NCBI GenBank assembly: GCA_044892525.1
Contig: CM097885.1
Span: forward strand, 8,372,001 to 8,436,000
From: Schmidtea polychroa
Lineage: Eukaryota
DNA: 64,000 nucleotides
Direction: 5' to 3'
Shown here piece after piece: positions 8,168-55,877 of the stretch (within the stretch, counting starts at the first letter, position 1; every line of letters starts with the position of its first letter). The translations under genes and the position numbers were made by a program. A model generated the notes under the pieces. The model was not told the DNA's origin. It worked only from the letters and a program-made list of their open reading frames with translations, and ran no database searches.

Positions 8168-8244
8168 AGTAGTAGGATGTGGGCTCCCCAGACCAGGTCC
8201 CCTCCAGATCACATATACCCCCCCCCCGGGAAAAAATTTTATTT

Positions 8245-9120
8245 TTTTTTTAGAACGATGCCTAATATTTTTAGAACTATTACGTAATCAATGCCTAATA
8301 TTTTTAGAACGATGCCTAATATTTTTAGAACTATTACGTAATCAATGCCTAATATTTTTAGAACGATGCCTAATATTTTTAGAACTATTATGTAATTTTT
8401 TTTTAAATTAATTGGTCCAGCGGTGACCTACTTTTTTTCTTCCCAAAAGTAATGTTCCCGCCAACAAATTTTATTGAACGATACCTCATCTTAAAGCTCA
8501 GTCCAAGACCTTTCGAATGAGCTATAGGTATCTTATATATCTTTAATAGTTTTAATGTTATTAACAATTGATGACCACCATCTTTTCAACGTTAAATTAT
8601 TATTATTTTTCAAAATATTATTAAGTGATCCAGCGGGGACCTACTTTTTTTCATCCCAAAAATTATTGTTCCCGCCAACATATTATATTGATCGATAGCT
8701 TATTTTAAAGCTCTGTGCAAGAACTTTCTAATGAGATATAGATTTTTATCATACGATGACTCATCACATTTTTAGAACAAAGACAATGACTCATCACATT
8801 TTTAGAATGATGTCTAATATTTTAGAATGATGCCAAATATTTTTAGATTGATTACGTCATAATTTTAGAACGATGCCACATATTTTTAGAACGATGCCTA
8901 ATATTTTTAGAATGATTACGTCATATTTTTAGAACGATGCCTAATATTTTTAGAACTATTACGTAATCGATGTCTAATATTTTTAGAACGATGCCAAATA
9001 TTTTTAGAACGATGCCTAATATTTTTAGAATGATTACGTCATACTTTTAGAACGATGCCTAATATTTTTAGAATGATTACGTCATACTTTTAGAACGATG
9101 CCTAATATTTTTAGAACTAA
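8245..9120 (+). repeat. Subterminal 21-22 bp tandem arrays (tttttagaacgatgcctaata / tttttagaacgattacgtcata)
   Basis: Also at ~11130-12150 and ~13775-14795, and inverted at ~30250-31325 and ~40150-40965. These generate the spurious FLERCLI ORFs. Confidence 0.9.
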
Positions 9121-9338
9121 TAATTTTGTTTTAATTATCGATTATATAATAATTTAATTTTGTTTAAATCGTTGATTATATAATTTGTTTAAATCATTGA
9201 TTATATAATTTTTTGTTTTAATTATCGAATACGTAATAATATAATTTGTTTAAATCGTTGATTACATATTATTATTTTTTAATTTTCAATATTTTCTTTT
9301 AAAATATTAACGCCCATGTGGAAGATGTTATTTTCAAA

Positions 9339-9339
<1 letters not shown>

Positions 9340-9380
<41 letters not shown>

Positions 9381-9785
9381 TGCAATTATTCATAAAACTT
9401 AATTTCTACATCAATTTCATGATTTTCAACATTTTCATCATTTGCATTTTTTAATAATTATCAATATTTTCATAATTTTCTACATTTTCAATATTTTCAC
9501 GATTTTCAACATTTTCATGATTATTTCAGGAACTTTTACATCAAATATTGTTCAAAGTATTATTTTCAAAGAATTATTTTCAAAGTTTTAATCAATATTA
9601 TTATTATTATTAATATTATTATTATGATTATTATTATATATACTCCTAGTCTATCCGACAAGATATTCTGTCCCCCTAAGGGTAATGGTCACAAAGGTAC
9701 TACTCACATTCAACAAGTCACAAGGGTACTGCTCACACTCAATATGTCGTAAATTATTATTATTATTATTTCAAATACAAGTTCA

Positions 9786-9864
<79 letters not shown>

Positions 9865-10226
9865 TATTATTACGCGCACGGGGAATATTATTATCATATA
9901 TACTCTTAATCTATCCGACAAAATATTCTATCCCTCTATGGGTATTGCTCATATGGGTAATGGTCAAAGGTGTACTACTCACATTCAACATGTTTCAAAG
10001 GGTATAATATAATTATTATTAAATTCTGACCAACTTAAATCAATGAAGGGGTAGAACAAAAATATATTAAGTTGCGGTATTTTAAATTTAAAAATATTTT
10101 AAAAACTTATTTTGACACTAAAGTTTACTTAATTAACAAAGACATAATTATTGCACATGCTTTGCATAAATATTATTATTTTTTAAATTTTCAATATTTT
10201 CTTTTAAAGTATTAACACGCGCGGGA

Positions 10227-10274
<48 letters not shown>

Positions 10275-10385
10275 GTTAACGAAAAATCTAAAATATGGTT
10301 TACACACACAACCCATTAAACTTTATTATTATTAACGCAAATATTAGTGAAAAACCTAAAATATTTTTTACACGACCCATTAAAC

Positions 10386-10430
<45 letters not shown>

Positions 10431-10607
10431 GCAAATATTAGTCAAAAACATAAAATATTTTTACACACACACAACCCATTAACCATTATTATTATTATTG
10501 CAAATATTAGTCAAAAACATAAAAACACTCATTAACCATTATTATTATCAATATTAGTGAAAACCTAAAATATATATTTTTTTCCACACACACACAACCC
10601 ATTAAAC

Positions 10608-10640
<33 letters not shown>

Positions 10641-10751
10641 GTTAACGAAAAATCTAAAATATGGTTTACACACACAACCCATTAAACTTTATTATTATTA
10701 ACGCAAATATTAGTGAAAAACCTAAAATATTTTTTACACGACCCATTAAAC

Positions 10752-10787
<36 letters not shown>

Positions 10788-11000
10788 GCAAATATTAGTC
10801 AAAAACATAAAATATTTTTACACACACACAACCCATTAACCATTATTATTATTGCAAATATTAGTCAAAAACATAAAAACACTCATTAACCATTATTATT
10901 ATCAATATTCGTGAAAACCTCAAATATTTTTTTCCACACACACACAACCCATTAAACTTTATTATTATTATTATTATAATTATTATTATTATTAGTGAAA
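9340..11000 (+). repeat. (ATT)n microsatellites interleaved with acacacaacccattaa-containing minisatellite units
   Basis: Visible directly; mirrored as (AAT)n at ~29220-30170 and ~38215-39930, with tract lengths differing between arms. Confidence 0.9.
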
Positions 11001-11042
11001 AAACCTTAAATAATTTTTACATACTAAGTTATGGGGTAGAGT

Positions 11043-12405
11043 AGTAGTAGGATGTGTCCCCGCCAGATCAGGTCCCCTCCAGATCACATATACCCCCTCC
11101 CCCCCCCCCCGGGAAAAAATTTTATTTTTTTTTAGAACGATGCCTAATATTTTTAGAACTATTACGTAATCAATGCCTAATATTTTTAGAACGATGCCTA
11201 ATATTTTTAGAACTATTACGTAATTTTTTTTAAATTAAGTGATCCAGCGGGGACCTACTTTTTTTCTTCCCAAAAGTAATGTTCCCGCCAACAAATTTTA
11301 TTAACCGATACCTCATCTTAAAGCTCAGTCCAAGACCTTTCGAATGAGCTATAAGTATCTTATATATCTTTAATAGTTTTAATGTTATTAACAATTGATG
11401 ACCACCATCTTTTCAACGTTAAATTATTATTATTTTTCAAAATATTATTAAGTGATCCAGCGGGGACCTACTTTTTTTCATCCCAAAAATTATTGTTCCC
11501 GCCAACATATTATATTGATCGATAGCTTATTTTAAAGCTCTGTGCAAGAACTTTCTAATGAGATATAGATTTTTATCATACGATGACTCATCACATTTTT
11601 AGAACGATTACGTCATACTTTTAGAACGATGCCTAATATTTTTAGAACGATGCCTCTTATTTTTAGAACGATTACGTCATACTTTTAGAATGGTGCCTAA
11701 TATTTTTAGAACGATGCCTTTTAATTTTAGAACGATGCCAAATATTTTTAGAATGGTGCCTAATATTTTTAGAACGATGCCTTTTAATTTTAGAACGATG
11801 CCAAATATTTTTAGAATGGTGCCTAATATTTTTAGAACGATTACGTCATACTTTTAGAACGATGTCTAATGTTTTTAGAACGATGCCTAATATTTTTAGA
11901 ACTATTACGTAATCGATGTCTAATATTTTTAGAACGATGCCAAATATTTTTAGAACGATGCCAAATATTTTTAGAACGATGCCTAATATTTTTAGAACGA
12001 TTACGTCATACTTTTAGAACGATGTCTAATATTTTTAGAACGATGCCTAATATTTTTAGAACGATGCCTAATATTTTTAGAACGATTACGTCATATTTTT
12101 AGAACGATGTCTAATATTTTTAGAACGATGCCAAATATTTTTAGAACTAATAATTTTTGTTTTAATTATCGAATACGTAATAATATAATTTTGTTTAAAT
12201 CGTTGATTACATATTATTATTTTCTAAGTTTTATTATTATTATTATTATTATAATTATATATACTCCGAGTTTATCCGGCAAGATATTCTTTCCCCTATG
12301 GGTACTGCTCACAAATGTACTACTCACATTCAACAAGTCACAAGGGTACTGCTCACACTCAATATGTCGTAAATTATTATTATTATTATTTCAAATACAA
12401 GTTCA

Positions 12406-12496
<91 letters not shown>

Positions 12497-12858
12497 TATT
12501 ATTACGCGCACGGGGAATATTATTATCATATATACTCTTAATCTATCCGACAAAATATTCTATCCCTCTATGGGTATTGCTCATATGGGTAATGGTCAAA
12601 GGTGTACTACTCACATTCAACATGTTTCAAAGGGTATAATATAATTATTATTAAATTCTGACCAACTTAAATCAATGAAGGGGTAGAACAAAAATATATT
12701 AAGTTGCGGTATTTTAAATTTAAAAATATTTTAAAAACTTATTTTGACACTAAAGTTTACTTAATTAACAAAGACATAATTATTGCACATGCTTTGCATA
12801 AATATTATTATTTTTTAAATTTTCAATATTTTCTTTTAAAGTATTAACACGCGCGGGA

Positions 12859-12909
<51 letters not shown>

Positions 12910-13020
12910 GTTAACGAAAAATCTAAAATATGGTTTACACACACAACCCATTAAACTTTATTATTATTAACGCAAATATTAGTGAAAAACCTAAAATATT
13001 TTTTACACGACCCATTAAAC

Positions 13021-13065
<45 letters not shown>

Positions 13066-13242
13066 GCAAATATTAGTCAAAAACATAAAATATTTTTACA
13101 CACACACAACCCATTAACCATTATTATTATTATTGCAAATATTAGTCAAAAACATAAAAACACTCATTAACCATTATTATTATCAATATTAGTGAAAACC
13201 TAAAATATATATTTTTTTCCACACACACACAACCCATTAAAC

Positions 13243-13278
<36 letters not shown>

Positions 13279-13389
13279 GTTAACGAAAAATCTAAAATAT
13301 GGTTTACACACACAACCCATTAAACTTTATTATTATTAACGCAAATATTAGTGAAAAACCTAAAATATTTTTTACACGACCCATTAAAC

Positions 13390-13428
<39 letters not shown>

Positions 13429-13683
13429 GCAAATATTAGTCAAAAACATAAAATATTTTTACACACACACAACCCATTAACCATTATTATTATTGCAAAT
13501 ATTAGTCAAAAACATAAAAACACTCATTAACCATTATTATTATCAATATTCGTGAAAACCTCAAATATTTTTTTCCACACACACACAACCCATTAAACTT
13601 TATTATTATTATTATTATAATTATTATTATTATTAGTGAAAAAACCTTAAATAATTTTTACATACTAAGTTATGGGGTAGAGT
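11043..13683 (+). repeat. ~2.64-kb tandem duplication spanning the A/B insertion junction
   Basis: 11043-~12950 is near-identical to 13684-~15640, and ~12300-13683 is near-identical to ~9690-11042. The TSD plus terminus junction therefore appears twice, 2641 bp apart. Confidence 0.85.
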
Positions 13684-15050
13684 AGTAGTAGGATGTGTCC
13701 CCGCCAGATCAGGTCCCCTCCAGATCACATATACCCCCTCCCCCCCCCCCCCCCCGGGAAAAAATTTTATTTTTTTTTAGAACGATGCCTAATATTTTTA
13801 GAACTATTACGTAATCAATGCCTAATATTTTTAGAACGATGCCTAATATTTTTAGAACTATTACGTAATTTTTTTTAAATTAAGTGATCCAGCGGGGACC
13901 TACTTTTTTTCTTCCCAAAAGTAATGTTCCCGCCAACAAATTTTATTAACCGATACCTCATCTTAAAGCTCAGTCCAAGACCTTTCGAATGAGCTATAAG
14001 TATCTTATATATCTTTAATAGTTTTAATGTTATTAACAATTGATGACCACCATCTTTTCAACGTTAAATTATTATTATTTTTCAAAATATTATTAAGTGA
14101 TCCAGCGGGGACCTACTTTTTTTCATCCCAAAAATTATTGTTCCCGCCAACATATTATATTGATCGATAGCTTATTTTAAAGCTCTGTGCAAGAACTTTC
14201 TAATGAGATATAGATTTTTATCATACGATGACTCATCACATTTTTAGAACGATTACGTCATACTTTTAGAACGATGCCTAATATTTTTAGAACGATGCCT
14301 CTTATTTTTAGAACGATTACGTCATACTTTTAGAATGGTGCCTAATATTTTTAGAACGATGCCTTTTAATTTTAGAACGATGCCAAATATTTTTAGAATG
14401 GTGCCTAATATTTTTAGAACGATGCCTTTTAATTTTAGAACGATGCCAAATATTTTTAGAATGGTGCCTAATATTTTTAGAACGATTACGTCATACTTTT
14501 AGAACGATGTCTAATGTTTTTAGAACGATGCCTAATATTTTTAGAACTATTACGTAATCGATGTCTAATATTTTTAGAACGATGCCAAATATTTTTAGAA
14601 CGATGCCAAATATTTTTAGAACGATGCCTAATATTTTTAGAACGATTACGTCATACTTTTAGAACGATGTCTAATATTTTTAGAACGATGCCTAATATTT
14701 TTAGAACGATGCCTAATATTTTTAGAACGATTACGTCATATTTTTAGAACGATGTCTAATATTTTTAGAACGATGCCAAATATTTTTAGAACTAATAATT
14801 TTTGTTTTAATTATCGAATACGTAATAATATAATTTTGTTTAAATCGTTGATTACATATTATTATTTTCTAAGTTTTATTATTATTATTATTATTATAAT
14901 TATATATACTCCGAGTTTATCCGGCAAGATATTCTTTCCCCTATGGGTACTGCTCACAAATGTACTACTCACATTCAACAAGTCACAAGGGTACTGCTCA
15001 CACTCAATATGTCGTAAATTATTATTATTATTATTTCAAATACAAGTTCA

Positions 15051-15141
<91 letters not shown>

Positions 15142-15503
15142 TATTATTACGCGCACGGGGAATATTATTATCATATATACTCTTAATCTATCCGACAAAA
15201 TATTCTATCCCTCTATGGGTATTGCTCATATGGGTAATGGTCAAAGGTGTACTACTCACATTCAACATGTCTCAAAGGGTATAATATAATTATTATTAAA
15301 TTCTGACCAACTTAAATCAATGAAGGGGTAGAACAAAAATATATTAAGTTGCGGTATTTTAAATTTAAAAATATTTTAAAAACTTATTTTGACACTAAAG
15401 TTTACTTAATTAACAAAGAGATAATTATTGCACATGCTTTGCATAAATATTATTATTTTTTAAATTTTCAATATTTTCTTTTAAAGTATTAACACGCGCG
15501 GGA

Positions 15504-15605
<102 letters not shown>

Positions 15606-16149
15606 GTTAATGAAAAATCTAAAATATGGTTTACACACACAACCCCTCAACCATTATTATTATTATCAGTATTAAAAACCTAAAATATTTTCTACACACA
15701 CACAACCCATTAACCATTATTATTATCATTATTAGTGAAAACCTAAAATATTTTTTACACACACACACACACAACCCATTAACCATTATTATTATCAATA
15801 TTAAAAACCTAAAATATTTTTACACACACACACACAACCCATTAAACTTTATTATTATTATTATTAAAATAATTTTTACACACTAGGTTATGGGGTAGAG
15901 AATTATTATATGTTTGCAGTATTCTGTATTTGCCTTTACATGAAATTTTCAATAAGGAGCGATAATTTTACACATACATTCTATATACACATACCTTGTT
16001 TAACATGGGTGTATATACTCCTAGTCTATCCGACAAGATATTCTGTCCCCCTATGGGTATTGCTAGCAAGGGTACTACTCACACTCAACAAGGGTTTTCG
16101 ATCTTAAAGCATATTATGGTTTATTAAGGTTAGTAAATAAAACTTATCA

Positions 16150-16645
16150 CACACACTATTTAAACGATAAAAATCAAGACAAGAGAGGACAAGGCAAAGT
16201 GTATGCATTTAGTATTGCCAGGCCTAATGAGCAGTGACCAAATATCTGTGCCTGAAAGACACGGTGGATATTTGTTCGCGTCCACAAGGGTCGTCTGTGC
16301 CTCCCCCAAGTGGGGTCAGAAGAACCTGGGCATTATAGCTTTCCGTACGGAACATTACGCCTAGCATGGGTAGTCAACTACCAGCACATTCGAAACGTAT
16401 AATTTCAAAATACATGCGTCATTGGCACTATAACCAAATTAATTAATGTTTTCACTAACACAAATATATATTTACAGAGGCCTCCCACTAGTTGGATTAC
16501 AACCGCCCACCACGACGATCAGCTTGTAAATATATATTAATTAAGGGATAAAGAGGACCCACCCAACCCTATTATATTTAATTTACAAATTTTTCTCGCT
16601 CTTCTGCTGGTATTCTATCTCAAAATTATCATCTCCATCGGGCCA
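16150..16645. other. Conserved GC-rich, hairpin-dense non-coding island (candidate structured RNA or ssDNA signal); copies at ~28445-28940 (inverted), ~31645-32140 and ~37440-37940 (inverted)
   Basis: Hairpins caaatatc...gatatttg, cccc-aagt-gggg, ttccgtacggaa, ggtag-tcaa-ctacc, and a 14-bp stem aatatatatttaca...tgtaaatatatatt. Essentially identical in A and B although the flanks differ. Confidence 0.5.
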
Positions 16646-17553
16646 TTTGGAATACATCTTGCGAATTGGACATATTTCTTAGTTTCTGATGTGGTGTCAA
16701 CTATCATTGCTAAAATTTATATTGATTTAAAAGCAATTAACTTACATTATCTAACATTTTATCGTCACAGGCTTGATAAATTAGGCAACTGTTATTTGTG
16801 GTATACTTTTTCAATGTCATTTCCCACCATAAAACACAGATACCTAAATATAATATATATATTTTAAAGAATTAATTCATGTCTTACATTAATAATAATA
16901 TTCTTCAGGTAGTACTTTACAATATCTAATTGATAAAACATCGGTTTTTTCCCATTTTTCTTGACATTCGTTGAAAGTTTACATAATTTAAGTCTGATAA
17001 TTCATGTTGAAGGACACCCACAATCAGCTAATTCATTTAAGAAATCCCGAACATAGCAATGTTTCACCATTTTGTCTGGTTCATTTTCTTCTATAATTCA
17101 TGTTTTAATAAGAAATCTCTAAATCCAGAACATAAGTCATTTAGTGTTTCACCATTTTGTTCATCTTCTTCATAATTATATAATTCATTTTCTTCATTAC
17201 TAAGTAAAATAATTAAAATATTTTAGTAAATTCTTTATTTACTTACTTTATGGATACTAAAACGAAAGAAATAACGTTATATCAGAATTATATTTAAATA
17301 ATTTAAATTTAGTTATTTAAACATATTTAAACACTTTAGTTATTTAAGCATATTTAAACATTAATATTATTATATAGTATAATTTTATATAATTTTATAT
17401 AATATTATAATATTATAATATTATGTATTGTAAATTTAATATATCCTTCATTTAATTTTTTTAATTCAAATATTTATAATGAAGATTCTTTGAATTAAAA
17501 AATATTCTGTTAGTATTTCCAGGCAGAAAACAACGAATTCAATAATTAAAATC

Positions 17554-20500
17554 TTAATTTTCATGTTGTTAGGGTTGTGGCCAGAAGTTAATCGCCATCT
17601 AATCGTTTGTTCTCAATTTCGCTCATTTTTGTTCAAAACATTCAGGTGAGTTGTTATCTGGAAAGTTTCTTTGAGCTCAGTTTTGTTAAAACACTCACGG
17701 TATTTTTGAGGGACGTGACACTGGAAATAAATTACCAATGGGTGGTCATCCATACATGTTGTTGGTTTGAACTGTTGATTTATTTTAGAAATATGTATAT
17801 TAAAAACATTTAAGGTATCATTCAGTAAAATAATATAGTATTTTTGAGTATTTTTAGTTAATTTATAAATAACAGTATTTTGATATATCAATAAAGACCA
17901 TATACTCCTAGTTTATCCGACAAAATATTCTGTCCCCCTATGGGTATTGCTAGCAAGGGTACTGGTCACACTCAACATGTCGCAATATTAATCATTTAGA
18001 AATTCTTTGGTAATTTAGTGAGATGATCGTGAATATTTTAAATGTAACTTTACACTTATGTCGAGCGACTAATTTATTGGTTAACTTTGTAGTCATTTAA
18101 AGCAAAAATTAATTTATTCATCTAATGTTCGTTACAATAGATAATAATATGAGAAAAACATGGTCATTATTCATTGATAATTTTAAATTCTTTATCATTT
18201 GGAGTAAATTTGTTTGAGGCAAAAATAATTAAAGGAGTCATAATAGAAATATGGTTATCATTTATCCAATTAAGGAGCCTATTATTTAGAAATATATATT
18301 ATAAAGTAACAATTATTTTCTAATTTAATTAGATGATCATTAGACGTAATATATCTTTGCGAGAAATTTAAGATGTTTGAGTAACCAAAACATGGACATT
18401 TTGTGCGATAAATTTATGAATATTGCTTAATTTTGTTATTTTTAGTCATTTAAAATAATATTTAGCAAAGGTAATTTAGCAAAATATCATTTATCCACCC
18501 GATAACAATATTCCTTCAATAGATTAACTGATATTCAACCTATTTAATTTCTGGAAATATAATTAAAATCATAAATTTCCTTCATGAAAGTTAAATTTTC
18601 TTTAGTTGTCGATGTCTAACTCTTTTAAGTCAATATTTTTGTTACCGTTATCTTCATAATGAATGTCCGTCTTTAAAATGTTAAATAAAATAATTTAAAG
18701 CAATAACCTTTGATATCAATTATCTCTAAATATTTCAAATATTGCATTGTCAAAACCAAGTAAATTAGTCATTACCCATTAATAAAACCGTGGATAATTA
18801 ATAAAAACTGGTTCTGAAACATAAATTACTGTGCAATAACATTCATCACAACCTCTAAAACGATATAATTTCACAGGAACTATTCATAGCTGACTATTTC
18901 CCTTGAAAATTTGATATTTTACCAATAAGAATATATAAATATTCAAAACATTAACCGATCCCTCACCAAATATCTTTACCCCTTAAAACACCTTAAATCG
19001 TATATATTACCATCTTAACCTTCACTAAATCCAACCGAATATAATTTCATCCACTTGTGCCCTTTAATAAATCTTAAAATCTATAGAAAATTCTTCAAAA
19101 TATAAATTTTATTTAATTGTCACAGACATTCTTCCATTGAAATAATTTAGTAGCTAAATTCAAAGAGTCCACTAAAAGATCAAAATTCATTAAAATAAAT
19201 ATTTAACCACATGTGTCATCAAATACCTAACTAGAGATGATAATATCTCATTGATTGATCATAATTATAACCATTATAACATGATATATCTTTCAAACTA
19301 AATTTAGGTATATTTTACAATAATTTTCAAGTAGATTTTAAATATATCATCATCGTGAAAAAATTAGATTGTTTCAACTTTAGATTTTCAATATTTTAAA
19401 GTTCATCAATGTGTAAATATTCTTAGAAAAATATATGAAAAAATTATTTAGTCAAATTATCATTACAAAGTCATCATCATCATCAAAATTAATAAAATAT
19501 AGCAAATTATCAAGAAATTAATTAAATTTATCTTAGAATTAACACTAAACCTTAAATATTCTTTCAATTAACATGAAATTCACAAAAAAATATTAGTAAA
19601 ATCCCGCTAACTCTAAAAATTACCAACGAATTTAATGCTAAATAATAACCAAAAATTTGCCTAAATAAAACACACCAGTACCTTTACGACCAGTACCCTT
19701 ACGAGCAGTATCAATTGTGAACAGTACCCATAGAGGGAGAAAATATCTTGTCGGATAAACTCAGAGTATATATAATAAAACGAATTAACAATAACTCCAT
19801 CAAATTGAATCAGTCAAATTAACACAAATTTTGATAAAAAATCTTATTCTAAAATGGTAAGAAGCGTAAAGTCGTTAATTTTCATGTTGTTAGGGTTGTG
19901 GCCAGAAGTTAATCGCCATCTAATCGTTTGTTCTCAATTTCGCTCATTTTTGTTCAAAACATTCAGGTGAGTTGTTATCTGGAAAGTTTCTTTGAGCTCA
20001 GTTTTGTTAAAACACTCACGGTATTGATCCAGATAACATGGTCATTATTCATTGATAATTTTAAATTCTTTATCATTTGGAGTAAATTTGTTTGAGGCAA
20101 AAATAATTAAAGGAGTCATAATAGAAATATGGTTATCATTTAACCAAATAAGGTGCTTATTAGTTAAAAATATAAAGTAACAATTCTTTTCTAATTTAAT
20201 TAGATGATCATTAGACGTAATATATCTTTGCGAGAAATTTAAGATGTTTGAGTAACCAAAACATTGATATTTTGGGTCATCAATTTATGAATAGTGCTTA
20301 ATTTTCTCATTTTTAGTGATTTAAAATAATATTTAGCAAAGGTAATTTGGCAAAATATCACTTATCCATCCGATAATAATATTCCTTCAATAGATTAACT
20401 GATATTCAACCGATTTAATTTCTAATTAAAATCATAAAATTCCTTCAATAAAGATCAATTTTCTTTAGCCGTTGTCGATTTCCAACTTTTAAGTCAATAT

Positions 20501-21760
20501 TTCTCAAGTTTTGTCACTGATGTCCCCACAATGAATAAAATAACTTCTTAAGTAAATAATTTAAAGCAATAACCTTTGATATCAATCCCAATTAATTCTA
20601 AAGATTTCAAATATTTCATTGTGAAAACCAAGTAAATTGATCATTAACCCTAAACGACTTAATAAAACAGTGGATAATTAATAAAAAACTGGTTCTAAAA
20701 CATAAATTTAAATTACTGTGCAATAACATTCATCACAACCTAATAAACCTCTAAAACGATATAATTTCACAGGAACTATTATTAATTCATAGCTAAATAC
20801 TGACTATTTCCCTTTAAAATTTACCAATAAGAACATTGTCGATTTAAATAGAGATTTTAAACATTTCCACCAAATATTTCTATCATTTTAAACACCCCCT
20901 TAAAAATCATATATTACCATCTTAACCAACCGACTTTAATATATCAGACCTTTAATATATCAATTCTCTTAAAATCCATAGAAAATTCTTCAAAATATGA
21001 ATTTTATTTAATTGTTACAGACATCCTTCCATTGAAATAATTTAGTATCTAAATTCATGTAGTAAGAGCCCACTAAAAGATCAAAATTCACTAAAATCAA
21101 TATTTTCTACAAATATTTCACCACATTTACCATCAAATACCTAACTAGAGATGAAATATATTGATTGATCATAATTCTTCATCGATTCAGCTAATTATAT
21201 AGCAATTATAACGTGATATATCTTTCAAAATCACAAATTTCAGTATATTTTACAATAATTTTTACAAAAATTAAATAATAATCACTTGATTATTGTAAAA
21301 ACTCTAATTATTAACCTAACTGTCATTAAAAATATTATTATTTAAAAGTAAATTTAAAAACAAGTCAATAAAATATAGCAAATTAACAAGAAATTAATTA
21401 AATTTGTCTTAGAATTAACACTAAAACGTTAAATTTCAAAATATTCTTTCAATTATTCACAAAAAGGTTAGTAATAATGTTAGTAAAATCCCGCTAACTC
21501 TAAAAATTACCAATGAAATTAATGCTAAATAATAACCAAAAATTTGCCTAAATAAAACACACCAGTACCTTTACGACCAGTACCCTTACAACCAGTACCC
21601 TTACGAGCAGTACCCATAGAGGGAGAAAATATCTTGTCGGATAAACTCAGAGTATATATAATAAAACGAATTAACAATAACTCCATCAAATTGAATCAGT
21701 CAAATTAACACAAATTTTGATAAAAAATCTTATTCTAAAATGGTAAGAAGCGTAAAGTCG
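17554..21760 (+). repeat. Diverged internal direct duplication within the arm of B (17554-19873 vs 19874-21760), mirrored at ~22610-26815
   Basis: Both units start ttaattttcatgttgttagggttgtggcc and end aaaatggtaagaagcgtaaagtcg. The second lacks ~450 bp and differs by many indels. Confidence 0.85.
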
Positions 21761-24700
21761 AAAGATAATTTTAATAACACCGAGATAAATTAACAATATT
21801 ATTCTCAGGTGGTAAGAATCTTCATTAAAGTGAAGAAATTATAAGAACTACCAAATGCTATAAAATATTTAAACGAAATTAGTTTTGTTGTTTTATGACT
21901 TTCGGTTATATTTGAGTAAGTTTTCGATTGTCCCTTTTAACTTTCAGTGCTCATTTTCATTCAAAAGAGTAATGTATCTTAAATTATCTTTTGGAATATT
22001 TGTTTTTGAAATAATTAGTGTAAAATAGTAAATTTAATAATAAATTGTTAATATTAAAGGACTTAAAGAATAATTTAAAATATGAATTTATCATAATTAC
22101 TCTGTCAAATACAATTCACGGTTTCTTATGTAATAAAATAATCATTTGGGGATTAAATACTTTATTAAATAAAAGTTTATCGCATTATTAAAATATTTTA
22201 ATTCGTTAGTAGCTCATATAATAGAAATAATTTTATATATCCTCATCACTTATAGCCGCCGATTCTCGATTTCCCAATAATTATTATCATTTATATTCTC
22301 CCGGCAAATATTTCTTTTAAAATTGTATTAAATATTTTTTATTAAAGTGATCATTTTTATGAATTTTTATGAATTTTATGAAATAATTTTAAATAAATAC
22401 AATTAATATATATCCATGCCACTTCTCAGTATATTTTCATTAACCTTCCATAATCCAATAATGAATTATTCTAACACTTATTTTACCCCTTTGAAGTTTA
22501 TTATTAATTTATCACAGAATAATAAATAATTTCCTAACTTTAATGAAGATTCTTACCACCTGAGAATAATATTGTTAATTTATCTCGGTGTTATTAAAAT
22601 TATCTTTCGACTTTACGCTTCTTAACATTTTAGAATAAGATTTTTTATCAAAATTTGTGTTAATTTGACTGATTCAATTTGATGGAGTTATTGTTAATTC
22701 GTTTTATTATATATACTCTGAGTTTATCCGACAAGATATTTTCTCCCTCTATGGGTACTGCTCGTAAGGGTACTGGTTGTAAGGGTACTGGTCGTAAAGG
22801 TACTGGTGTGTTTTATTTAGGCAAATTTTTGGTTATTATTTAGCATTAAATTCATTGGTAATTTTTAGAGTTAGCGGGATTTTACTAACATTATTACTAA
22901 CCTTTTTGTGAATAATTGAAAGAATATTTTGAAATTTAACGTTTTAGTGTTAATTCTAAGACAAATTTAATTAATTTCTTGTTAATTTGCTATATTTTAT
23001 TGACTTGTTTTTAAATTTACTTTTAAATAATAATATTTTTAATGACAGTTAGGTTAATAATTAGAGTTTTTACAATAATCAAGTGATTATTATTTAATTT
23101 TTGTAAAAATTATTGTAAAATATACTGAAATTTGTGATTTTGAAAGATATATCACGTTATAATTGCTATATAATTAGCTGAATCGATGAAGAATTATGAT
23201 CAATCAATATATTTCATCTCTAGTTAGGTATTTGATGGTAAATGTGGTGAAATATTTATAGAAAATATTGATTTTAGTGAATTTTGATCTTTTAGTGGGC
23301 TCTTACTACATGAATTTAGATACTAAATTATTTCAATGGAAGGATGTCTGTAACAATTAAATAAAATTCATATTTTGAAGAATTTTCTATGGATTTTAAG
23401 AGAATTGATATATTAAAGGTCTGATATATTAAAGTCTGTTGGTTAAGATGGTAATATATGATTTTTAAGGGGGTGTTTAAAATGATAGAAATATTTGGTG
23501 GAAATGTTTAAAATCTCTATTTAAATCGACAATGTTCTTATTGGTAAATTTTAAAGGGAAATAGTCAGTATTTAGCTATGAATTAATAATAGTTCCTGTG
23601 AAATTATATCGTTTTAGAGGTTTATTAGGTTGTGATGAATGTTATTGCACAGTAATTTAAATTTATGTTTTAGAACCAGTTTTTTATTAATTATCCACTG
23701 TTTTATTAAGTCGTTTAGGGTTAATGATCAATTTACTTGGTTTTCACAATGAAATATTTGAAATCTTTAGAATTAATTGGGATTGATATCAAAGGTTATT
23801 GCTTTAAATTATTTACTTAAGAAGTTATTTTATTCATTGTGGGGACATCAGTGACAAAACTTGAGAAATATTGACTTAAAAGTTGGAAATCGACAACGGC
23901 TAAAGAAAATTGATCTTTATTGAAGGAATTTTATGATTTTAATTAGAAATTAAATCGGTTGAATATCAGTTAATCTATTGAAGGAATATTATTATCGGAT
24001 GGATAAGTGATATTTTGCCAAATTACCTTTGCTAAATATTATTTTAAATCACTAAAAATGAGAAAATTAAGCACTATTCATAAATTGATGACCCAAAATA
24101 TCAATGTTTTGGTTACTCAAACATCTTAAATTTCTCGCAAAGATATATTACGTCTAATGATCATCTAATTAAATTAGAAAAGAATTGTTACTTTATATTT
24201 TTAACTAATAAGCACCTTATTTGGTTAAATGATAACCATATTTCTATTATGACTCCTTTAATTATTTTTGCCTCAAACAAATTTACTCCAAATGATAAAG
24301 AATTTAAAATTATCAATGAATAATGACCATGTTATCTGGATCAATACCGTGAGTGTTTTAACAAAACTGAGCTCAAAGAAACTTTCCAGATAACAACTCA
24401 CCTGAATGTTTTGAACAAAAATGAGCGAAATTGAGAACAAACGATTAGATGGCGATTAACTTCTGGCCACAACCCTAACAACATGAAAATTAACGACTTT
24501 ACGCTTCTTACCATTTTAGAATAAGATTTTTTATCAAAATTTGTGTTAATTTGACTGATTCAATTTGATGGAGTTATTGTTAATTCGTTTTATTATATAT
24601 ACTCTGAGTTTATCCGACAAGATATTTTCTCCCTCTATGGGTACTGTTCACAATTGGTACTGCTCGTAAGGGTACTGGTCGTAAAGGTACTGGTGTGTTT

Positions 24701-26957
24701 TATTTAGGCAAATTTTTGGTTATTATTTAGCATTAAATTCGTTGGTAATTTTTAGAGTTAGCGGGATTTTACTAATATTTTTTTGTGAATTTCATGTTAA
24801 TTGAAAGAATATTTAAGGTTTAGTGTTAATTCTAAGATAAATTTAATTAATTTCTTGATAATTTGCTATATTTTATTAATTTTGATGATGATGATGACTT
24901 TGTAATGATAATTTGACTAAATAATTTTTTCATATATTTTTCTAAGAATATTTACACATTGATGAACTTTAAAATATTGAAAATCTAAAGTTGAAACAAT
25001 CTAATTTTTTCACGATGATGATATATTTAAAATCTACTTGAAAATTATTGTAAAATATACCTAAATTTAGTTTGAAAGATATATCATGTTATAATGGTTA
25101 TAATTATGATCAATCAATGAGATATTATCATCTCTAGTTAGGTATTTGATGACACATGTGGTTAAATATTTATTTTAATGAATTTTGATCTTTTAGTGGA
25201 CTCTTTGAATTTAGCTACTAAATTATTTCAATGGAAGAATGTCTGTGACAATTAAATAAAATTTATATTTTGAAGAATTTTCTATAGATTTTAAGATTTA
25301 TTAAAGGGCACAAGTGGATGAAATTATATTCGGTTGGATTTAGTGAAGGTTAAGATGGTAATATATACGATTTAAGGTGTTTTAAGGGGTAAAGATATTT
25401 GGTGAGGGATCGGTTAATGTTTTGAATATTTATATATTCTTATTGGTAAAATATCAAATTTTCAAGGGAAATAGTCAGCTATGAATAGTTCCTGTGAAAT
25501 TATATCGTTTTAGAGGTTGTGATGAATGTTATTGCACAGTAATTTATGTTTCAGAACCAGTTTTTATTAATTATCCACGGTTTTATTAATGGGTAATGAC
25601 TAATTTACTTGGTTTTGACAATGCAATATTTGAAATATTTAGAGATAATTGATATCAAAGGTTATTGCTTTAAATTATTTTATTTAACATTTTAAAGACG
25701 GACATTCATTATGAAGATAACGGTAACAAAAATATTGACTTAAAAGAGTTAGACATCGACAACTAAAGAAAATTTAACTTTCATGAAGGAAATTTATGAT
25801 TTTAATTATATTTCCAGAAATTAAATAGGTTGAATATCAGTTAATCTATTGAAGGAATATTGTTATCGGGTGGATAAATGATATTTTGCTAAATTACCTT
25901 TGCTAAATATTATTTTAAATGACTAAAAATAACAAAATTAAGCAATATTCATAAATTTATCGCACAAAATGTCCATGTTTTGGTTACTCAAACATCTTAA
26001 ATTTCTCGCAAAGATATATTACGTCTAATGATCATCTAATTAAATTAGAAAATAATTGTTACTTTATAATATATATTTCTAAATAATAGGCTCCTTAATT
26101 GGATAAATGATAACCATATTTCTATTATGACTCCTTTAATTATTTTTGCCTCAAACAAATTTACTCCAAATGATAAAGAATTTAAAATTATCAATGAATA
26201 ATGACCATGTTTTTCTCATATTATTATCTATTGTAACGAACATTAGATGAATAAATTAATTTTTGCTTTAAATGACTACAAAGTTAACCAATAAATTAGT
26301 CGCTCGACATAAGTGTAAAGTTACATTTAAAATATTCACAAATTTCTGATTATCTTACCTAAGAATTTCTAAATGATTAATATTGCGTCTTGTTGAGTGT
26401 GACCAGTACCCTTGCTAGCAATACCCATAGGGGGACAGAATATTTTGTCGGATAAACTAGGAGTATATGGTCTTTATTGATATATCAAAATACTGTTATT
26501 TATAAATTAACTAAAAATACTCAAAAATACTATATTATTTTACTGAATGATACCTTAAATGTTTTTAATATACATATTTCTAAAATAAATCAACAGTTCA
26601 AACCAACAACATGTATGGATGACCACCCATTGGTAATTTATTTCCAGTGTCACGTCCCTCAAAAATACCGTGAGTGTTTTAACAAAACTGAGCTCAAAGA
26701 AACTTTCCAGATAACAACTCACCTGAATGTTTTGAACAAAAATGAGCGAAATTGAGAACAAACGATTAGATGGCGATTAACTTCTGGCCACAACCCTAAC
26801 AACATGAAAATTAAGATTTTAATTATTGAATTCGTTGTTTTCTGCCTGGAAATACTAACAGAATATTTTTTAATTCAAAGAATCTTCATTATAAATATTT
26901 GAATTAAAAAAATTAAATGAAGGATATATTAAATTTACAATACATAATATTATAATA

Positions 26958-27668
26958 CAAGGGTGGGCACGCATGGGTTCAATAAGAGCCATTTTCCGAA
27001 AATTTATTTTTTCCAGAGCCACCATAGTAAAGTACATATTTTTTTTTATTTCATTAATTTGATTAAAGAGACTTAAACGCTATTAAAAAAAACAAAATAA
27101 TTATTTCAAACATTAAGTAACAAACATAAAAATCCATTAATAAAAAGTAATAAAATTTCTTGAATTAACGAAGACTTTTGGTCAAATCTTTGAAATTTGG
27201 TGTATACTTTGTTAAAGCTGTTCGCAGCAATTCTGTAAGATGCTGATTGGTCAACTGTGAATGATATTTCGACTTTACGAACTTCATTGTGGAGTACAAA
27301 GATTCACAACAATATGTTGTACCAAAAATTGAAATTAAACGGCAAGCAGCTTGTTTTAAGTTTGGATATTTTGCCTCTGGTACGAGTTTCCAAAATTCAA
27401 CTATAGAAGTAGATTTATGGTGCATTTGCAAAGCCTGGTCATCTTTCATATCTAATAACTCCAATTCCCCAACCGCTTTTTTAACAAGTATTACTTCAGA
27501 AATTGGAAATCCATCTTCAATAATATCACAAATAAATGGGTTCACAAAAAATGCAAATGTAGATTTATAAAATCGAATTCGATTATCAAGAATTCAATTA
27601 TCAATGAGCCGCAGTTTACTCAACGAAGAGCCGCATGCGGCTCTAAGAGCCGCATTTGCCCACCGTTG
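26958..27668 (-). mobile_element. Internally deleted hAT (Buster/SPIN/Charlie-like) element, 711 bp, present only in the right arm of B
   Basis: TIR caagggtgggca/tgcccaccgttg (1 mismatch); 8-bp TSD TTATAATA (26950-26957, 27669-27676; nnnTAnnn type). Absent at the mirror site (~17400-17425). Confidence 0.9.
27165..27545 (-). pseudogene. hAT transposase C-terminal dimerisation domain fragment
   Basis: EFWKLVPEAKYPNLKQAACRLISIFGTTYCCESLYSTMKFVKSKYHSQLT matches the hAT dimerisation pattern (FW...YP.L...A..L.S...TTY.CE..FS). Confidence 0.88.
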
Positions 27669-29485
27669 TTATAATATTATAATATTATATAAAATTATAT
27701 AAAATTATACTATATAATAATATTAATGTTTAAATATGCTTAAATAACTAAAGTGTTTAAATATGTTTAAATAACTAAATTTAAATTATTTAAATATAAT
27801 TCTGATATAACGTTATTTCTTTCGTTTTAGTATCCATAAAGTAAGTAAATAAAGAATTTACTAAAATATTTTAATTATTTTACTTAGTAATGAAGAAAAT
27901 GAATTATATAATTATGAAGAAGATGAACAAAATGGTGAAACACTAAATGACTTATGTTCTGGATTTAGAGATTTCTTATTAAAACATGAATTATAGAAGA
28001 AAATGAACCAGACAAAATGGTGAAACATTGCTATGTTCGGGATTTCTTAAATGAATTAGCTGATTGTGGGTGTCCTTCAACATGAATTATCAGACTTAAA
28101 TTATGTAAACTTTCAACGAATGTCAAGAAAAATGGGAAAAAACCGATGTTTTATCAATTAGATATTGTAAAGTACTACCTGAAGAATATTATTATTAATG
28201 TAAGACATGAATTAATTCTTTAAAATATATATATTATATTTAGGTATCTGTGTTTTATGGTGGGAAATGACATTGAAAAAGTATACCACAAATAACAGTT
28301 GCCTAATTTATCAAGCCTGTGACGATAAAATGTTAGATAATGTAAGTTAATTGCTTTTAAATCAATATAAATTTTAGCAATGATAGTTGACACCACATCA
28401 GAAACTAAGAAATATGTCCAATTCGCAAGATGTATTCCAAATGGCCCGATAGAGATGATAATTTTGAGATAGAATACCAGCAGAAGAGCGAGAAAAATTT
28501 GTAAATTAAATATAATAGGGTTGGGTGGGTCCTCTTTATCCCTTAATTAATATATATTTACAAGCTGATCGTCGTGGTGGGCGGTTGTAATCCAACTAGT
28601 GGGAGGCCTCTGTAAATATATATTTGTGTTAGTGAAAACATTAATTAATTTGGTTATAGTGCCAATGACGCATGTATTTTGAAATTATACGTTTCGAATG
28701 TGCTGGTAGTTGACTACCCATGCTAGGCGTAATGTTCCGTACGGAAAGCTATAATGCCCAGGTTCTTCTGACCCCACTTGGGGGAGGCACAGACGACCCT
28801 TGTGGACGCGAACAAATATCCACCGTGTCTTTCAGGCACAGATATTTGGTCACTGCTCATTAGGCCTGGCAATACTAAATGCATACACTTTGCCTTGTCC
28901 TCTCTTGTCTTGATTTTTATCGTTTAAATAGTGTGTGTGATAAGTTTTATTTACTAACCTTAATAAACCATAATATGCTTTAAGATCGAAAACCCTTGTT
29001 GAGTGTGAGTATTACCCTTGCTAGCAATACCCATAGGGGGACAGAATATCTTGTCGGATAGACTAGGAGTATATACACCCATGTTAAACAAGGTATGTGT
29101 ATATAGAATGTATGTGTAAAATTATCGCTCCTTATTGAAAATTTCATGTAAAGGCAAATACAGAATACTGCAAACATATAATAATTCTCTACCCCATAAC
29201 CTAGTGTGTAAAAATTATTTTAATAATAATAATAATAAAGTTTAATGGGTTGTGTGTGTGTGTGTAAAAATATTTTAGGTTTTTAATATTGATAATAATA
29301 ATGGTTAATGGGTTGTGTGTGTGTGTGTGTGTAAAAAATATTTTAGGTTTTCACTAATAATGATAATAATAATGGTTAATGGGTTGTGTGTGTGTGTAGA
29401 AAATATTTTAGGTTTTTAATACTGATAATAATAATAATGGTTGAGGGGTTGTGTGTGTAAACCATATTTTAGATTTTTCATTAAC

Positions 29486-29551
<66 letters not shown>

Positions 29552-29913
29552 TCCCGCGCGTGTTAATACTTTAAAAGAAAATATTGAAAATTTAAAAAAT
29601 AATAATATTTATGCAAAGCATGTGCAATAATTATCTCTTTGTTAATTAAGTAAACTTTAGTGTCAAAATAAGTTTTTAAAATATTTTTAAATTTAAAATA
29701 CCGCAACTTAATATATTTTTGTTCTACCCCTTCATTGATTTAAGTTGGTCAGAATTTAATAATAATTATATTATACCCTTTGAGACATGTTAAATGTGAG
29801 TAGTACACCTTTGACCATTACCCATATGAGCAATACCCATAAAGGGATAGAATATTTTGTCGGATAGATTAAGAGTATATATGATAATAATATTCCCCGT
29901 GCGCGTAATAATA

Positions 29914-29992
<79 letters not shown>

Positions 29993-32900
29993 TGAACTTG
30001 TATTTGAAATAATAATAATAATAATTTACGACATATTGAGTGTGAGCAGTACCCTTGTGACTTGTTGAATGTGAGTAGTACATTTGTGAGCAGTACCCAT
30101 AGGGGAAAGAATATCTTGCCGGATAAACTCGGAGTATATATAATTATAATAATAATAATAATAATAAAACTTAGAAAATAATAATATGTAATCAACGATT
30201 TAAACAAAATTATATTATTACGTATTCGATAATTAAAACAAAAATTATTAGTTCTAAAAATATTTGGCATCGTTCTAAAAATATTAGACATCGTTCTAAA
30301 AATATGACGTAATCGTTCTAAAAATATTAGGCATCGTTCTAAAAATATTAGGCATCGTTCTAAAAATATTAGACATCGATTACGTAATAGTTCTAAAAAT
30401 ATTAGGCATCGTTCTAAAAATATTAGACATCGTTCTAAAAGTATGACGTAATCGTTCTAAAAATATTAGGCATCGTTCTAAAAATATTTGGCATCGTTCT
30501 AAAAATATTTGGCATCGTTCTAAAAATATTAGACATCGATTACGTAATAGTTCTAAAAATATTAGGCATCGTTCTAAAAATATTAGACATCGTTCTAAAA
30601 GTATGACGTAATCGTTCTTAAAATATTAGGCACCATTCTAAAAATATTTGGCATCGTTCTAAAATTAAAAGGCATCGTTCTAAAAATATTAGGCACCATT
30701 CTAAAAATATTTGGCATCGTTCTAAAATTAAAAGGCATCGTTCTAAAAATATTAGGCACCATTCTAAAAGTATGACGTAATCGTTCTAAAAATAAGAGGC
30801 ATCGTTCTAAAAATATTAGGCATCGTTCTAAAAGTATGACGTAATCGTTCTAAAAATGTGATGAGTCATCGTATGATAAAAATCTATATCTCATTAGAAA
30901 GTTCTTGCACAGAGCTTTAAAATAAGCTATCGATCAATATAATATGTTGGCGGGAACAATAATTTTTGGGATGAAAAAAAGTAGGTCCCCGCTGGATCAC
31001 TTAATAATATTTTGAAAAATAATAATAATTTAACGTTGAAAAGATGGTGGTCATCAATTGTTAATAACATTAAAACTATTAAAGATATATAAGATACCTA
31101 TAGCTCATTCGAAAGGTCTTGGACTGAGCTTTAAGATGAGGTATCGGTTAATAAAGTTTGTTGGCGGGAACATTACTTTTGGGAATAAAAAAAGTAGGTC
31201 CCCGCTGGATCACTTAATTTAAAAAAAATTACGTAATAGTTCTAAAAATATTAGGCATCGTTCTTAAAATATTAGGCATTGATTACGTAATAGTTCTAAA
31301 AATATTAGGCATCGTTCTAAAAAAAATAAAATTTTTTCCCGGGGGGGGGAGGGGGTATATGTGATCTGGAGGGGACCTGATCTGGCGGGGACACATCCTA
31401 CTACTTAGAGTATTATTATGTTTGCAGTATTCTGTGTTTGCCTTTACAGGAAGTTGTCAATAAGGAGCGATAATTTTACACACACATTCTATATACACAT
31501 ACCTTGTTTAACATGGGTGTATATACTCCTAGTCTATCCGACAAAATATTCTGTCCCCCTATGGGTATTGCTCACAAAGGTACTACTCACACTCAACATA
31601 TCGCAAGGGTATATTAATTATGGTTAGTAAATAAAACCTATCACACACACTATTTAAACGATAAAAATCAAGACAAGAGAGGACAAGGCAAAGTGTATGC
31701 ATTTAGTATTGCCAGGCCTAATGAGCAGTGACCAAATATCTGTGCCTGAAAGACACGGTGGATATTTGTTCGCGTCCACAAGGGTCGTCTGTGCCTCCCC
31801 CAAGTGGGGTCAGAAGAACCTGGGCATTATAGCTTTCCGTACGGAACATTACGCCTAGCATGGGTAGTCAACTACCAGCACATTCGAAACGTATAATTTC
31901 AAAATACATGCGTCATTGGCACTATAACCAAATTAATTAATGTTTTCACTAACACAAATATATATTTACAGAGGCCTCCCACTAGTTGGATTACAACCGC
32001 CCACCACGACGATCAGCTTGTAAATATATATTAATTAAGGGATAAAGAGGACCCACCCAACCCTATTATATTTAATTTACAAATTTTTCTCGCTCTTCTG
32101 CTGGTATTCTATCTCAAAATTATCATCTCCATCGGGCCATTTGATAGTGATTTCATGGAATACATCTTGCAAATTGGACGTATTTCTTAGTTTCTGATGC
32201 GGTGTCAACTATCATTGCTAAAATTTATATTGATTTAAAAGCAATTAACTTACATTATCTAGCATTTTATCGTCACAGGATTGATAAATTAGGCAACTGT
32301 TATTTGTGGTATACTTTTTCAATGTCATTTCCCACCATAAAACACAGATACCTAAATATAATATATATATTTTAAAGAATTAATTCATGTCTTACATTAA
32401 TAATAATATTCTTCAGGTAGTACTTTACAATATCTAATTGCTAAAACATCGGTTTTTCCCATTTTTCTTGACAATCGTTGAAAGTTTACATAATTTAAGT
32501 CTGATAATTCATGTTGAAGGACACCCACAATCAGCTAATTCATTTAAGAAATCCGGAACTATAACTCCTTTAGTGTTTCACCATTTTGTCTGGTTCATTT
32601 TCTTCTATAATTCATGTTTTAATAAGAAATTTCTAAATCCAGAACATAAGTCATTTAGTGTTTCACCATTTTGTCTGGTTCATCTTCTTCATAATCATAT
32701 AATTCATTTTCTTCATTACTAAGTAAAATAATTAAAATATTGTAGTAAATTCTTTATTTACTTACTTTATGGATACTAAAACGAAAGAAATAAAGTTATA
32801 TCAAAAGTATATTTAAATAAATTAAATTTAAATAATTTAATTTAGTTATTTAAATATATTTAAACACTTTAGTTATTTAAGCATATTTAAACATTAATAT

Positions 32901-38421: not shown

Positions 38422-38460
<39 letters not shown>

Positions 38461-38571
38461 GTTTAATGGGTCGTGTAAAAAATATTTTAGGTTTTTCACT
38501 AATATTTGCGTTAATAATAATAAAGTTTAATGGGTTGTGTGTGTAAACCATATTTTAGATTTTTCGTTAAC

Positions 38572-38604
<33 letters not shown>

Positions 38605-38781
38605 GTTTAATGGGTTGTGTGTGTGTGGAAAAAAATATATATTTTAGGTTTTCACTAATATTCATAATAATAATGGTTAATGAGTGTTTTTATGTTTTTG
38701 ACTAATATTTGTAATAATAATAATAATGGTTAATGGGTTGTGTGTGTGTAAAAATATTTTATGTTTTTGACTAATATTTGC

Positions 38782-38832
<51 letters not shown>

Positions 38833-38943
38833 GTTTAATGGGTCGTGTAAAAAATATTTTAGGTTTTTCACTAATATTTGCGTTAATAATAATAAAGTTT
38901 AATGGGTTGTGTGTGTAAACCATATTTTAGATTTTTCGTTAAC

Positions 38944-39036
<93 letters not shown>

Positions 39037-39398
39037 TCCCGCGCGTGTTAATACTTTAAAAGAAAATATTGAAAATTTAAAAAATAATAATATTTATGCA
39101 AAGCATGTGCAATAATTATGTCTTTGTTAATTAAGTAAACTTTAGTGTCAAAATAAGTTTTTAAAATATTTTTAAATTTAAAATACCGCAACTTAATATA
39201 TTTTTGTTCTACCCCTTCATTGATTTAAGTTGGTCAGAATTTAATAATAATTATATTATACCCTTTGAAACATGTTGAATGTGAGTAGTACACCTTTGAC
39301 CATTACCCATATGAGCAATACCCATAGAGGGATAGAATATTTTGTCGGATAGATTAAGAGCATATATGATAATAATATTCCCCGTGCGCGTAATAATA

Positions 39399-39462
<64 letters not shown>

Positions 39463-39867
39463 TGAACTTGTATTTGAAATAATAATAATAATAATTTACG
39501 ACATATTGAGTGTGAGCAGTACCCTTGTGACTTGTTGAATGTGAGTAGTACCTTTGTGACCATTACCCTTAGGGGGACAGAATATCTTGTCGGATAGACT
39601 AGGAGTATATATAATAATAATCATAATAATAATATTAATAATAATAATAATATTGATTAAAACTTTGAAAATAATTCTTTGAAAATAATACTTTGAACAA
39701 TATTTGATGTAAAAGTTCCTGAAATAATCATGAAAATGTTGAAAATCGTGAAAATATTGAAAATGTAGAAAATTATGAAAATATTGATAATTATTAAAAA
39801 ATGCAAATGATGAAAATGTTGAAAATCATGAAATTGATGTAGAAATTAAGTTTTATGAATAATTGCA

Positions 39868-39930
<63 letters not shown>

Positions 39931-55871: not shown

Positions 55872-55877
55872 TTAAAA

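Follow-up and report, generated by a model that had tools for sequence, protein, structure and literature searches.

A 7SL-like Alu domain in non-autonomous Maverick derivatives: a candidate satellite RNA gene and putative SRP9/14 decoy

In the arms of two large non-coding palindromes, an island of 496 nt stands out by its base composition and its uniformity. What does it contain, what keeps it uniform, and what could it do for elements that lack genes of their own? An earlier note had described an invariant, hairpin-rich stretch without an open reading frame and had proposed a structured RNA, for example a VA-RNA-like RNA or a ribozyme, or a cis element needed to parasitise a helper. Here, the window means the whole 64,000-nt stretch of DNA that was analysed; it has a GC content of 29% and comes from an assembly of 781 Mb.

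Palindromic Maverick derivatives and their GC-rich island

Self-comparison of the window revealed two large palindromes, elements A and B. Both carry 5'-(AGT)2 ... (ACT)2-3' on their inverted repeats and are bordered by 6-bp target-site duplications, the marks by which Mavericks are recognised in PMC8097293. Element A holds no PolB or integrase gene of its own, only short or low-complexity ORFs. Because PolB and integrase genes sit in a related helper family, A and B are classified as non-autonomous, gene-less Maverick (Polinton) derivatives. The elements, the island copies and one further motif are arranged as follows.

8168..41052, no strand: element B, ends AGTAGTAGG..CCTACTACT, target duplication AACAAT, insertion site between Gypsy-type ORFs; the span counts nested element A and one tandem duplication
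13684..31405, no strand: element A, palindromic non-coding Maverick derivative inside B, ends AGTAGTAGG..CCTACTACT, target duplication TAGAGT
16012..16090, plus strand: ~80-bp motif, repeated elsewhere in the arm and found at the inner end of helper TIRs
16150..16645, Alu sense on the minus strand: island in the left arm of A, reference copy
28442..28937, plus strand: island copy in the right arm of A, Alu sense on plus, G1 at 28564
31644..32139, minus strand: island copy in the left arm of B, Alu sense on minus
37441..37936, plus strand: island copy in the right arm of B, Alu sense on plus

Further copies of the ~80-bp motif lie at 9637, 12258, 14903, 17900, 19772 and 21658; a TATA-like sequence precedes the motif, which is deep in sequencing runs of both organism labels. 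Mavericks have repeatedly inserted into the arms of palindromic elements, in the window (11043-31405) and at 6.87 and 13.99 Mb of contig C1 (L086-L088, L094-L096). Elsewhere in the window, at 53964-58987 (plus strand), a gag ORF precedes two ORFs that match PF24664, a fusion glycoprotein family of Monjiviricetes; we read the set as an env-bearing LTR retroelement. A TFIIB-repeat fragment occurs in two copies of 92% identity (3762-4166 and 50352-50765; PF00382 tested on the first) that flank the region.

The island had been described as GC-rich and present in all four arms of A and B, and both points are borne out: its GC content is 0.41 against 0.26 for the arm, of which it is the richest 496-nt stretch, and copies occur at the four coordinates listed. 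The reported 14-bp stem also exists, 16463-16476 pairing with 16525-16538 around 48 enclosed nucleotides. None of 200 shuffles reached even 11 bp, but two further stems of at least 12 bp are found in the 8.5-kb arm. Likewise, the GTGTCT-TTC-AGGCAC hairpin lies at 28826-28840, pairs fully, by way of G-U, on the terminus-facing strand only, and is followed by a pyrimidine tract and T5. The compact hairpins as a class are nothing special, the minus strand having 12 against 11.9 in shuffles and the plus strand 5 against 8.0, and the whole island folds no better than shuffled sequence (z +0.33 and -0.47). The description as free of ORFs holds insofar as there is no real gene, although short frames exist, one of 53 codons and one of 47; a 1-nt indel at 16307 disrupts both in 5 of 53 copies. 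A peptide-coding reading was rejected on account of this frameshift and of the shared alleles, 6 of 13 of which fall at third positions of the 53-codon frame; it is also countered by variants from sequencing run X6 that, read by eye, bring a stop or shift into that frame. ARAGORN predicted no genes in the window, a bacterial promoter scan, which is not relevant here, was at chance, and the island had no match in phage records, viral contigs or metagenome contigs.

The stem loop and its likeness to 7SL RNA

An Rfam scan of the window gave no match at gathering score. Below that score, it returned Metazoa_SRP (RF00017) on the minus strand with 29.6 bits and E=1.4e-5, the alignment being confident over the 5' Alu domain only. 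Read on the minus strand, the loop previously given as 46 nt is a 7SL/SRP RNA 5' Alu domain, and it is this content of the stem loop that the earlier reading overlooked. Along the minus strand, the island is composed of the following parts.

16525..16538, minus strand: 14-bp stem, 5' arm, upstream of Alu G1; perfect 14-bp inverted repeat with 16463..16476
16479..16523, minus strand: 7SL/SRP RNA 5' Alu domain (nt 1-45) with helices 2, 3 and 4, triad G4/U23/G24, loops GGU and ACU
16463..16476, minus strand: 14-bp stem, 3' arm, directly after the Alu domain
16334..16462, minus strand: middle part, conserved (pi 0.022; indels 0.16 per 100 nt per copy), with a T4 run at 16410-16407 and small hairpins not above chance
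16216..16333, minus strand: module 2, conserved GC-rich multi-stem region with the GUGUCU-UUC-AGGCAC hairpin at 16262-16248; pi 0.022
16169..16215, minus strand: pyrimidine tract with T5 at 16173-16169, candidate 3' end; less conserved, pi 0.043

The Alu domain begins exactly at nt 1 of the host 7SL RNA, with which the element is identical at 32 of 39 positions; over nt 1-45 there are 10 differences. Despite these changes, 13 of 13 pairs in helices 2-4 are kept, with three double changes, all in helix 3 (P=5.5e-5 for random placement). A pair table of 16 rows (15 distinct) agrees, the three double changes all stemming from the host row; they rest on this single comparison of element and host and could predate the capture, having arisen in the 7SL of a former host. 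Position 36 is G in young copies and C in the host and in three old copies (L171, L173 and L174); by crystal numbering, G36 would cost one loop-loop pair. G4, U23, G24 and the U-turn are invariant in the Alu alignment, and the element loops GGU and ACU can pair as in the host. In PMC12265939, G4/U23/G24 constitute the SRP9/14 triad and the BC200 loops GGC/GCU pair with each other, to which GGU/ACU is comparable.

Overall, the island has in common with SRP RNA nt 1-45, helices 2-4, the G4.U23 wobble, the UGUAA U-turn and the pairable loops. It differs in lacking the S domain, in having helix 5 replaced by a stem of upstream and downstream sequence, and in its location inside the arm of a DNA transposon. 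As a full SRP RNA gene (RF00017, at least 70 bits with S domain) the element does not qualify, its score standing against ~240 bits for host genes. The remainder of the island outside the Alu domain has no detectable 7SL similarity. A candidate S-domain remnant (15 of 18 matching host 7SL) was not significant against shuffles (p=0.09), and CAGG..AGCAG on the plus strand, similar to the motif of SRP helix 8, was discarded, as it lies on the strand opposite to the Alu domain and is lost in the X6 variant.

The host 7SL genes, ~240 bits each, are arrayed in tandem as roughly 300 units of 593 bp (L032-L055; G000:C2:31.93-31.99 Mb and further on). A pattern excluding the element form had 315 matches, and array units account for 99 of 100 among the matches listed. 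Interspersed in the array are 254-bp units in which only the first 55 nt, the Alu domain, are left, fused to spacer; such units cut after ~55 nt are a possible source of the element's Alu piece. A lone ~130-nt 5' fragment of host 7SL lies outside array and element (L175; G000:C2:44.43 Mb). A search of the host assembly for the SRP14 family gave no match, a blank that does not mean absence.

In SRP RNA, sequence past nt 45 pairs with the 3' end of the RNA as helix 5, according to PMC4238359. The 5' stem arm of the island would take the place of the 3' strand of helix 5, as in a circular permutation. Stem and loop alone (80 nt) fold better than shuffles, with z -2.6 on the minus and -3.1 on the plus strand. 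The predicted pair probability of helix 2 is 0.39-0.50 with the upstream arm and at most 0.01 for an RNA beginning at G1, and an A>G change at 16533 (older lineage, 5 of 15 rows) leaves a G-U pair on the minus strand only; for these two reasons, the Alu domain is presumably used inside a longer RNA. Descent of the 3' stem arm from host helix 5 was considered and is not significant (p=0.74).

Conservation across copies and the link to helper elements

The 22-nt Alu motif has 2,118 matches in the assembly, host genes included, and subtracting the host-gene matches leaves ~1,800 element copies; the module-2 motif has 1,238 exact matches. Copies were sampled in order along contig C1. Each of the 68 aligns to the flank of an element on one side or both, and nothing thus points to a solo SINE. 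For the statistics, 53 copies were used, leaving out 3 picked for divergence, 9 local duplications and 3 near-duplicates.

Among these 53 copies, pi was lowest in the Alu domain (0.010), followed by the stem (0.015) and by the middle part and module 2 (0.022); the flanks at 15900-16149 and 16646-17450 had values of 0.033-0.065. Indels numbered 0-0.16 per 100 nt per copy in the core, with none in the Alu domain, versus 1.0-2.2 in the flanks. Diversity in the core is 2-3 times lower and indels are 5-10 times fewer. Shared alleles occupy 25 of 300 core sites versus 150 of 959 flank sites (p=0.001; conservation p-values are optimistic because the copies are related), and singletons are equally frequent (60/300 and 188/959). 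Selecting loci instead by a flank motif at a distance of 1 kb gave a concordant result, with pi 0.024 against 0.038-0.063 in the 17 of 30 loci that were retained; three of the 30 have no island within reach. The depletion of shared alleles and indels supports the proposal of a selected non-coding function on the strand that points toward the terminus. One locally duplicated cluster carries G14A together with a 17-nt deletion in module 2.

The term invariant applies to A and B themselves. No event-free run in the arm exceeds that between A-left and B-right over the island (16144-16636, ~492 nt), the second in length having 256 nt, and none of 491 island sites distinguishes A from B; genome-wide, however, copies differ by 1.9% in the island (3.8% in the flanks). 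None of 298 pairs with flank divergence like that of A and B has one island difference or fewer (median 7), which makes the A/B identity exceptional. Perfect A/B identity is recent exchange on top of family-wide constraint, and the apparent invariance as a whole is about two-fold constraint plus recent exchange. Homogenisation can mimic constraint, since the island is demonstrably exchanged between neighbours. Exchange as the sole explanation, with conservation equal to that of the flanks, is only half right, because part of the invariance is indeed recent exchange but the island is more conserved than its flanks.

The conservation extends beyond the Alu domain. Covariation, which the earlier note had named as a check, was not found within the family. 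Module 2 has no Rfam match, double changes affect 0 of its 24 predicted pairs, and shared alleles of the family do not avoid paired positions (12 broken, 11.3 expected). In run X6, which bears the organism B label, summed contig depth is ~63,000 at 16282-16295 versus ~315 over 16366-16490; its loose ends have the same module-2 core with changed neighbours, and a different hairpin in place of the window's TTCCGTACGGAA. These short contigs of one run suggest that a related family in another species keeps the module-2 core. The X6 variant of module 2 was not found in the host assembly, where a second pattern gave only 3 damaged family copies. Module 2 probably belongs to the same RNA as the Alu domain.

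Contigs of runs X4, X5 and X7 on 16421-16533 match Alu domain plus stem only, at low depth, with 17 differences and 5 gap letters; they possibly represent a diverged family, not located in the host assembly. Single contigs of X1 and X2 (one sample, its RNA nature being a guess) span 16157-16719 and 16196-16719, and are not counted as expression since contigs give neither strand nor ends. A second block at 17451-17600 is equally conserved in substitutions (pi 0.019) and has no RNA feature. The stretch 17451-17720 includes a 14-bp stem (17457-17502) and a minus-strand hydrophobic frame of 32 codons, has no Rfam match and recurs as a 159-bp copy at 19867-20025.

The helper family is represented by a capsid-like gene with at least 98 near-identical copies. 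Among its Atlas neighbours is a double-jelly-roll cluster (0.98, though recognition is below threshold), and it is 21% identical to a Pfam DJR protein (E=0.017). We compared 10 hand-picked loci of this gene, three of them chosen for nearness to islands. Seven are helper Mavericks of ~16 kb with short related TIRs, A32 ATPase, integrase and PolB; in these seven copies, five of which were covered end to end, no island markers were found, the best low-stringency match having E=0.20. The other three are hybrids without PolB in the stretch examined, each with one long arm bearing the island, the Alu sense being the gene sense. Within this small chosen set, absent from the seven helpers and present in the three PolB-less hybrids, the island accompanies reliance on a helper, and the suspected link to parasitising the helper is supported.

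In the hybrids (L211-L216, L092-L093), an ATPase, an integrase, a 355-aa ORF and the capsid-like gene are present and the long non-coding arm replaces PolB. Many capsid-gene matches lie 3-4 kb from an island match. The window itself contains a protein-primed PolB of 805 aa (44621-47038, minus strand; PF03175), which, being only 57% identical to the helper PolB, comes from a different Maverick family.

Proposed role, alternatives and significance

We put at roughly even the chance that the island is a conserved Maverick module around a captured 7SL Alu domain whose RNA would bind host SRP9/14 as a decoy. Transcription of the minus strand toward the element end would start upstream of 16538, allowing the stem to form, and perhaps end at T5 (16173). 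The Alu domain would fold on the new 14-bp stem that replaces SRP helix 5, and could then bind host SRP9/14. SRP9/14 would be drawn off 40S subunits and stress granules while helper proteins keep being made, a role that would resemble that of adenoviral VA RNA with a different target. In PMC4176187, Alu RNA rivals 40S for SRP9/14 and affects stress granules, which is why a decoy could keep helper proteins being made. According to PMC11760393, a 5' domain of 46 nt is able to associate with SRP9/14, and an embedded Alu is functional inside a Pol II transcript. More tentative, and somewhat short of an even chance, is the fuller proposal of a candidate satellite-Maverick RNA gene, in which a circularly permuted Alu domain and a second motif would act as an SRP9/14 decoy that exploits the helper in about a thousand elements.

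Alternatively, the island could work as DNA, as a cis element (promoter, site for a Pol III factor or another protein, packaging or replication signal) for PolB-less derivatives, the Alu fold being baggage. Conservation without covariation in the family would fit, as would several strand-symmetric palindromes (TTCCGTACGGAA, the 14-bp AT stem), the second conserved block without RNA signature and the restriction of the island to PolB-less forms among those examined. Yet one strand is favoured by the features that depend on G-U, the helper manages replication and integration in the absence of the island, and the changes of the Alu domain relative to host 7SL are structural double changes. We regard a purely DNA-level role as unlikely.

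Quite unlikely is a passive relic, that is, a 7SL fragment captured once and made uniform by recent expansion and gene conversion. The host array does contain truncated Alu-only units, the A/B identity is recent exchange, folding is at chance level and damaged copies exist. However, the depletion concerns shared alleles and indels and not singletons, and the flank-selected sample agrees. In addition, the old copies L130 and L163 have retained a core identity of 95-96% at ~75% in the flanks, and the module-2 core recurs under the other organism label with changed neighbours.

It is improbable that the Alu domain is expressed as a stand-alone, scAlu- or BC1-like Pol III RNA of ~115 nt from G1 (16523) to T4 at 16410. 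Although the domain starts exactly at host nt 1 and T4 follows 113 nt downstream (old copies have T4 plus T5 there), the upstream sequence has no similarity to that of host 7SL, folding predicts no helix 2 once the upstream arm is missing, and conservation spans module 2 and the upstream arm. Judged by eye against the consensus, the Pol III A and B boxes are weak, the B box in particular not being good. That module 2 is a self-cleaving ribozyme releasing the Alu RNA is highly improbable: the region is compact, GC-rich and multi-stemmed and its core is conserved across two organism labels, but no Rfam ribozyme matches at E up to 10, and hammerhead, HDV-like and twister cores do not fit by eye. 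The VA-RNA-like or ribozyme identity proposed earlier finds no support from Rfam models, whether at gathering score or with E allowed to reach 10. The island is neither a VA RNA nor a ribozyme of a known kind, and it is not a SINE or a complete SRP gene either.

Neither the Alu domain nor its reuse by SINEs is new. As described in PMC11760393, PMC13023118 and PMC12265939, 7SL-derived SINEs and RNAs (Alu, B1, Urop, scAlu, BC200) resemble the element as selfish sequences that retain the SRP9/14-binding domain of 7SL. In contrast to them, the element spreads inside a Maverick, with solo copies in 0 of 68 cases, and has neither a poly(A) tail nor a 3' Alu part after central deletion. The solo copies, own target duplications and A-rich tail expected of a 7SL-derived SINE were not found, 68 of 68 copies aligning to flank; such SINEs, which spread by retroposition in a few vertebrate lineages, are given in PMC13023118 only for supraprimates, hagfish and a shrew mole. 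The artificial permuted SRP construct mentioned in PMC4238359 likewise has the Alu domain joined rigidly to a helix-5 equivalent, and Thermoproteus has a natural permuted SRP RNA gene according to PMC4731332. Unlike circularly permuted SRP RNAs, the element has a closing helix of new AT-rich sequence instead of a 7SL strand, and no S domain.

With Mavericks/Polintons, the window elements share the (AGT)2 ends, the 6-bp duplications and a related helper with PolB, integrase, A32 ATPase and capsid-like gene, but they are long non-coding palindromes. A Maverick with a 7SL piece was not found in a search of mainly open-access literature; TE libraries or Repbase may already contain the family. Adenovirus VA RNA and a BC200 copy reported for a human poxvirus are parallels from DNA viruses of a structured non-coding RNA aimed at host translation; in contrast to VA RNA, the island has no Rfam VA match.

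If the proposed role is true, capturing SRP9/14 would pay off without reverse transcription, in a DNA transposon or virus satellite. The island would be the first candidate non-coding RNA for Mavericks, and a natural counterpart to the permuted Alu domain known so far as an artificial construct of crystallographers. Because a single genome combines ~1,800 near-identical copies with a young helper family, both expression and binding lend themselves to direct tests.
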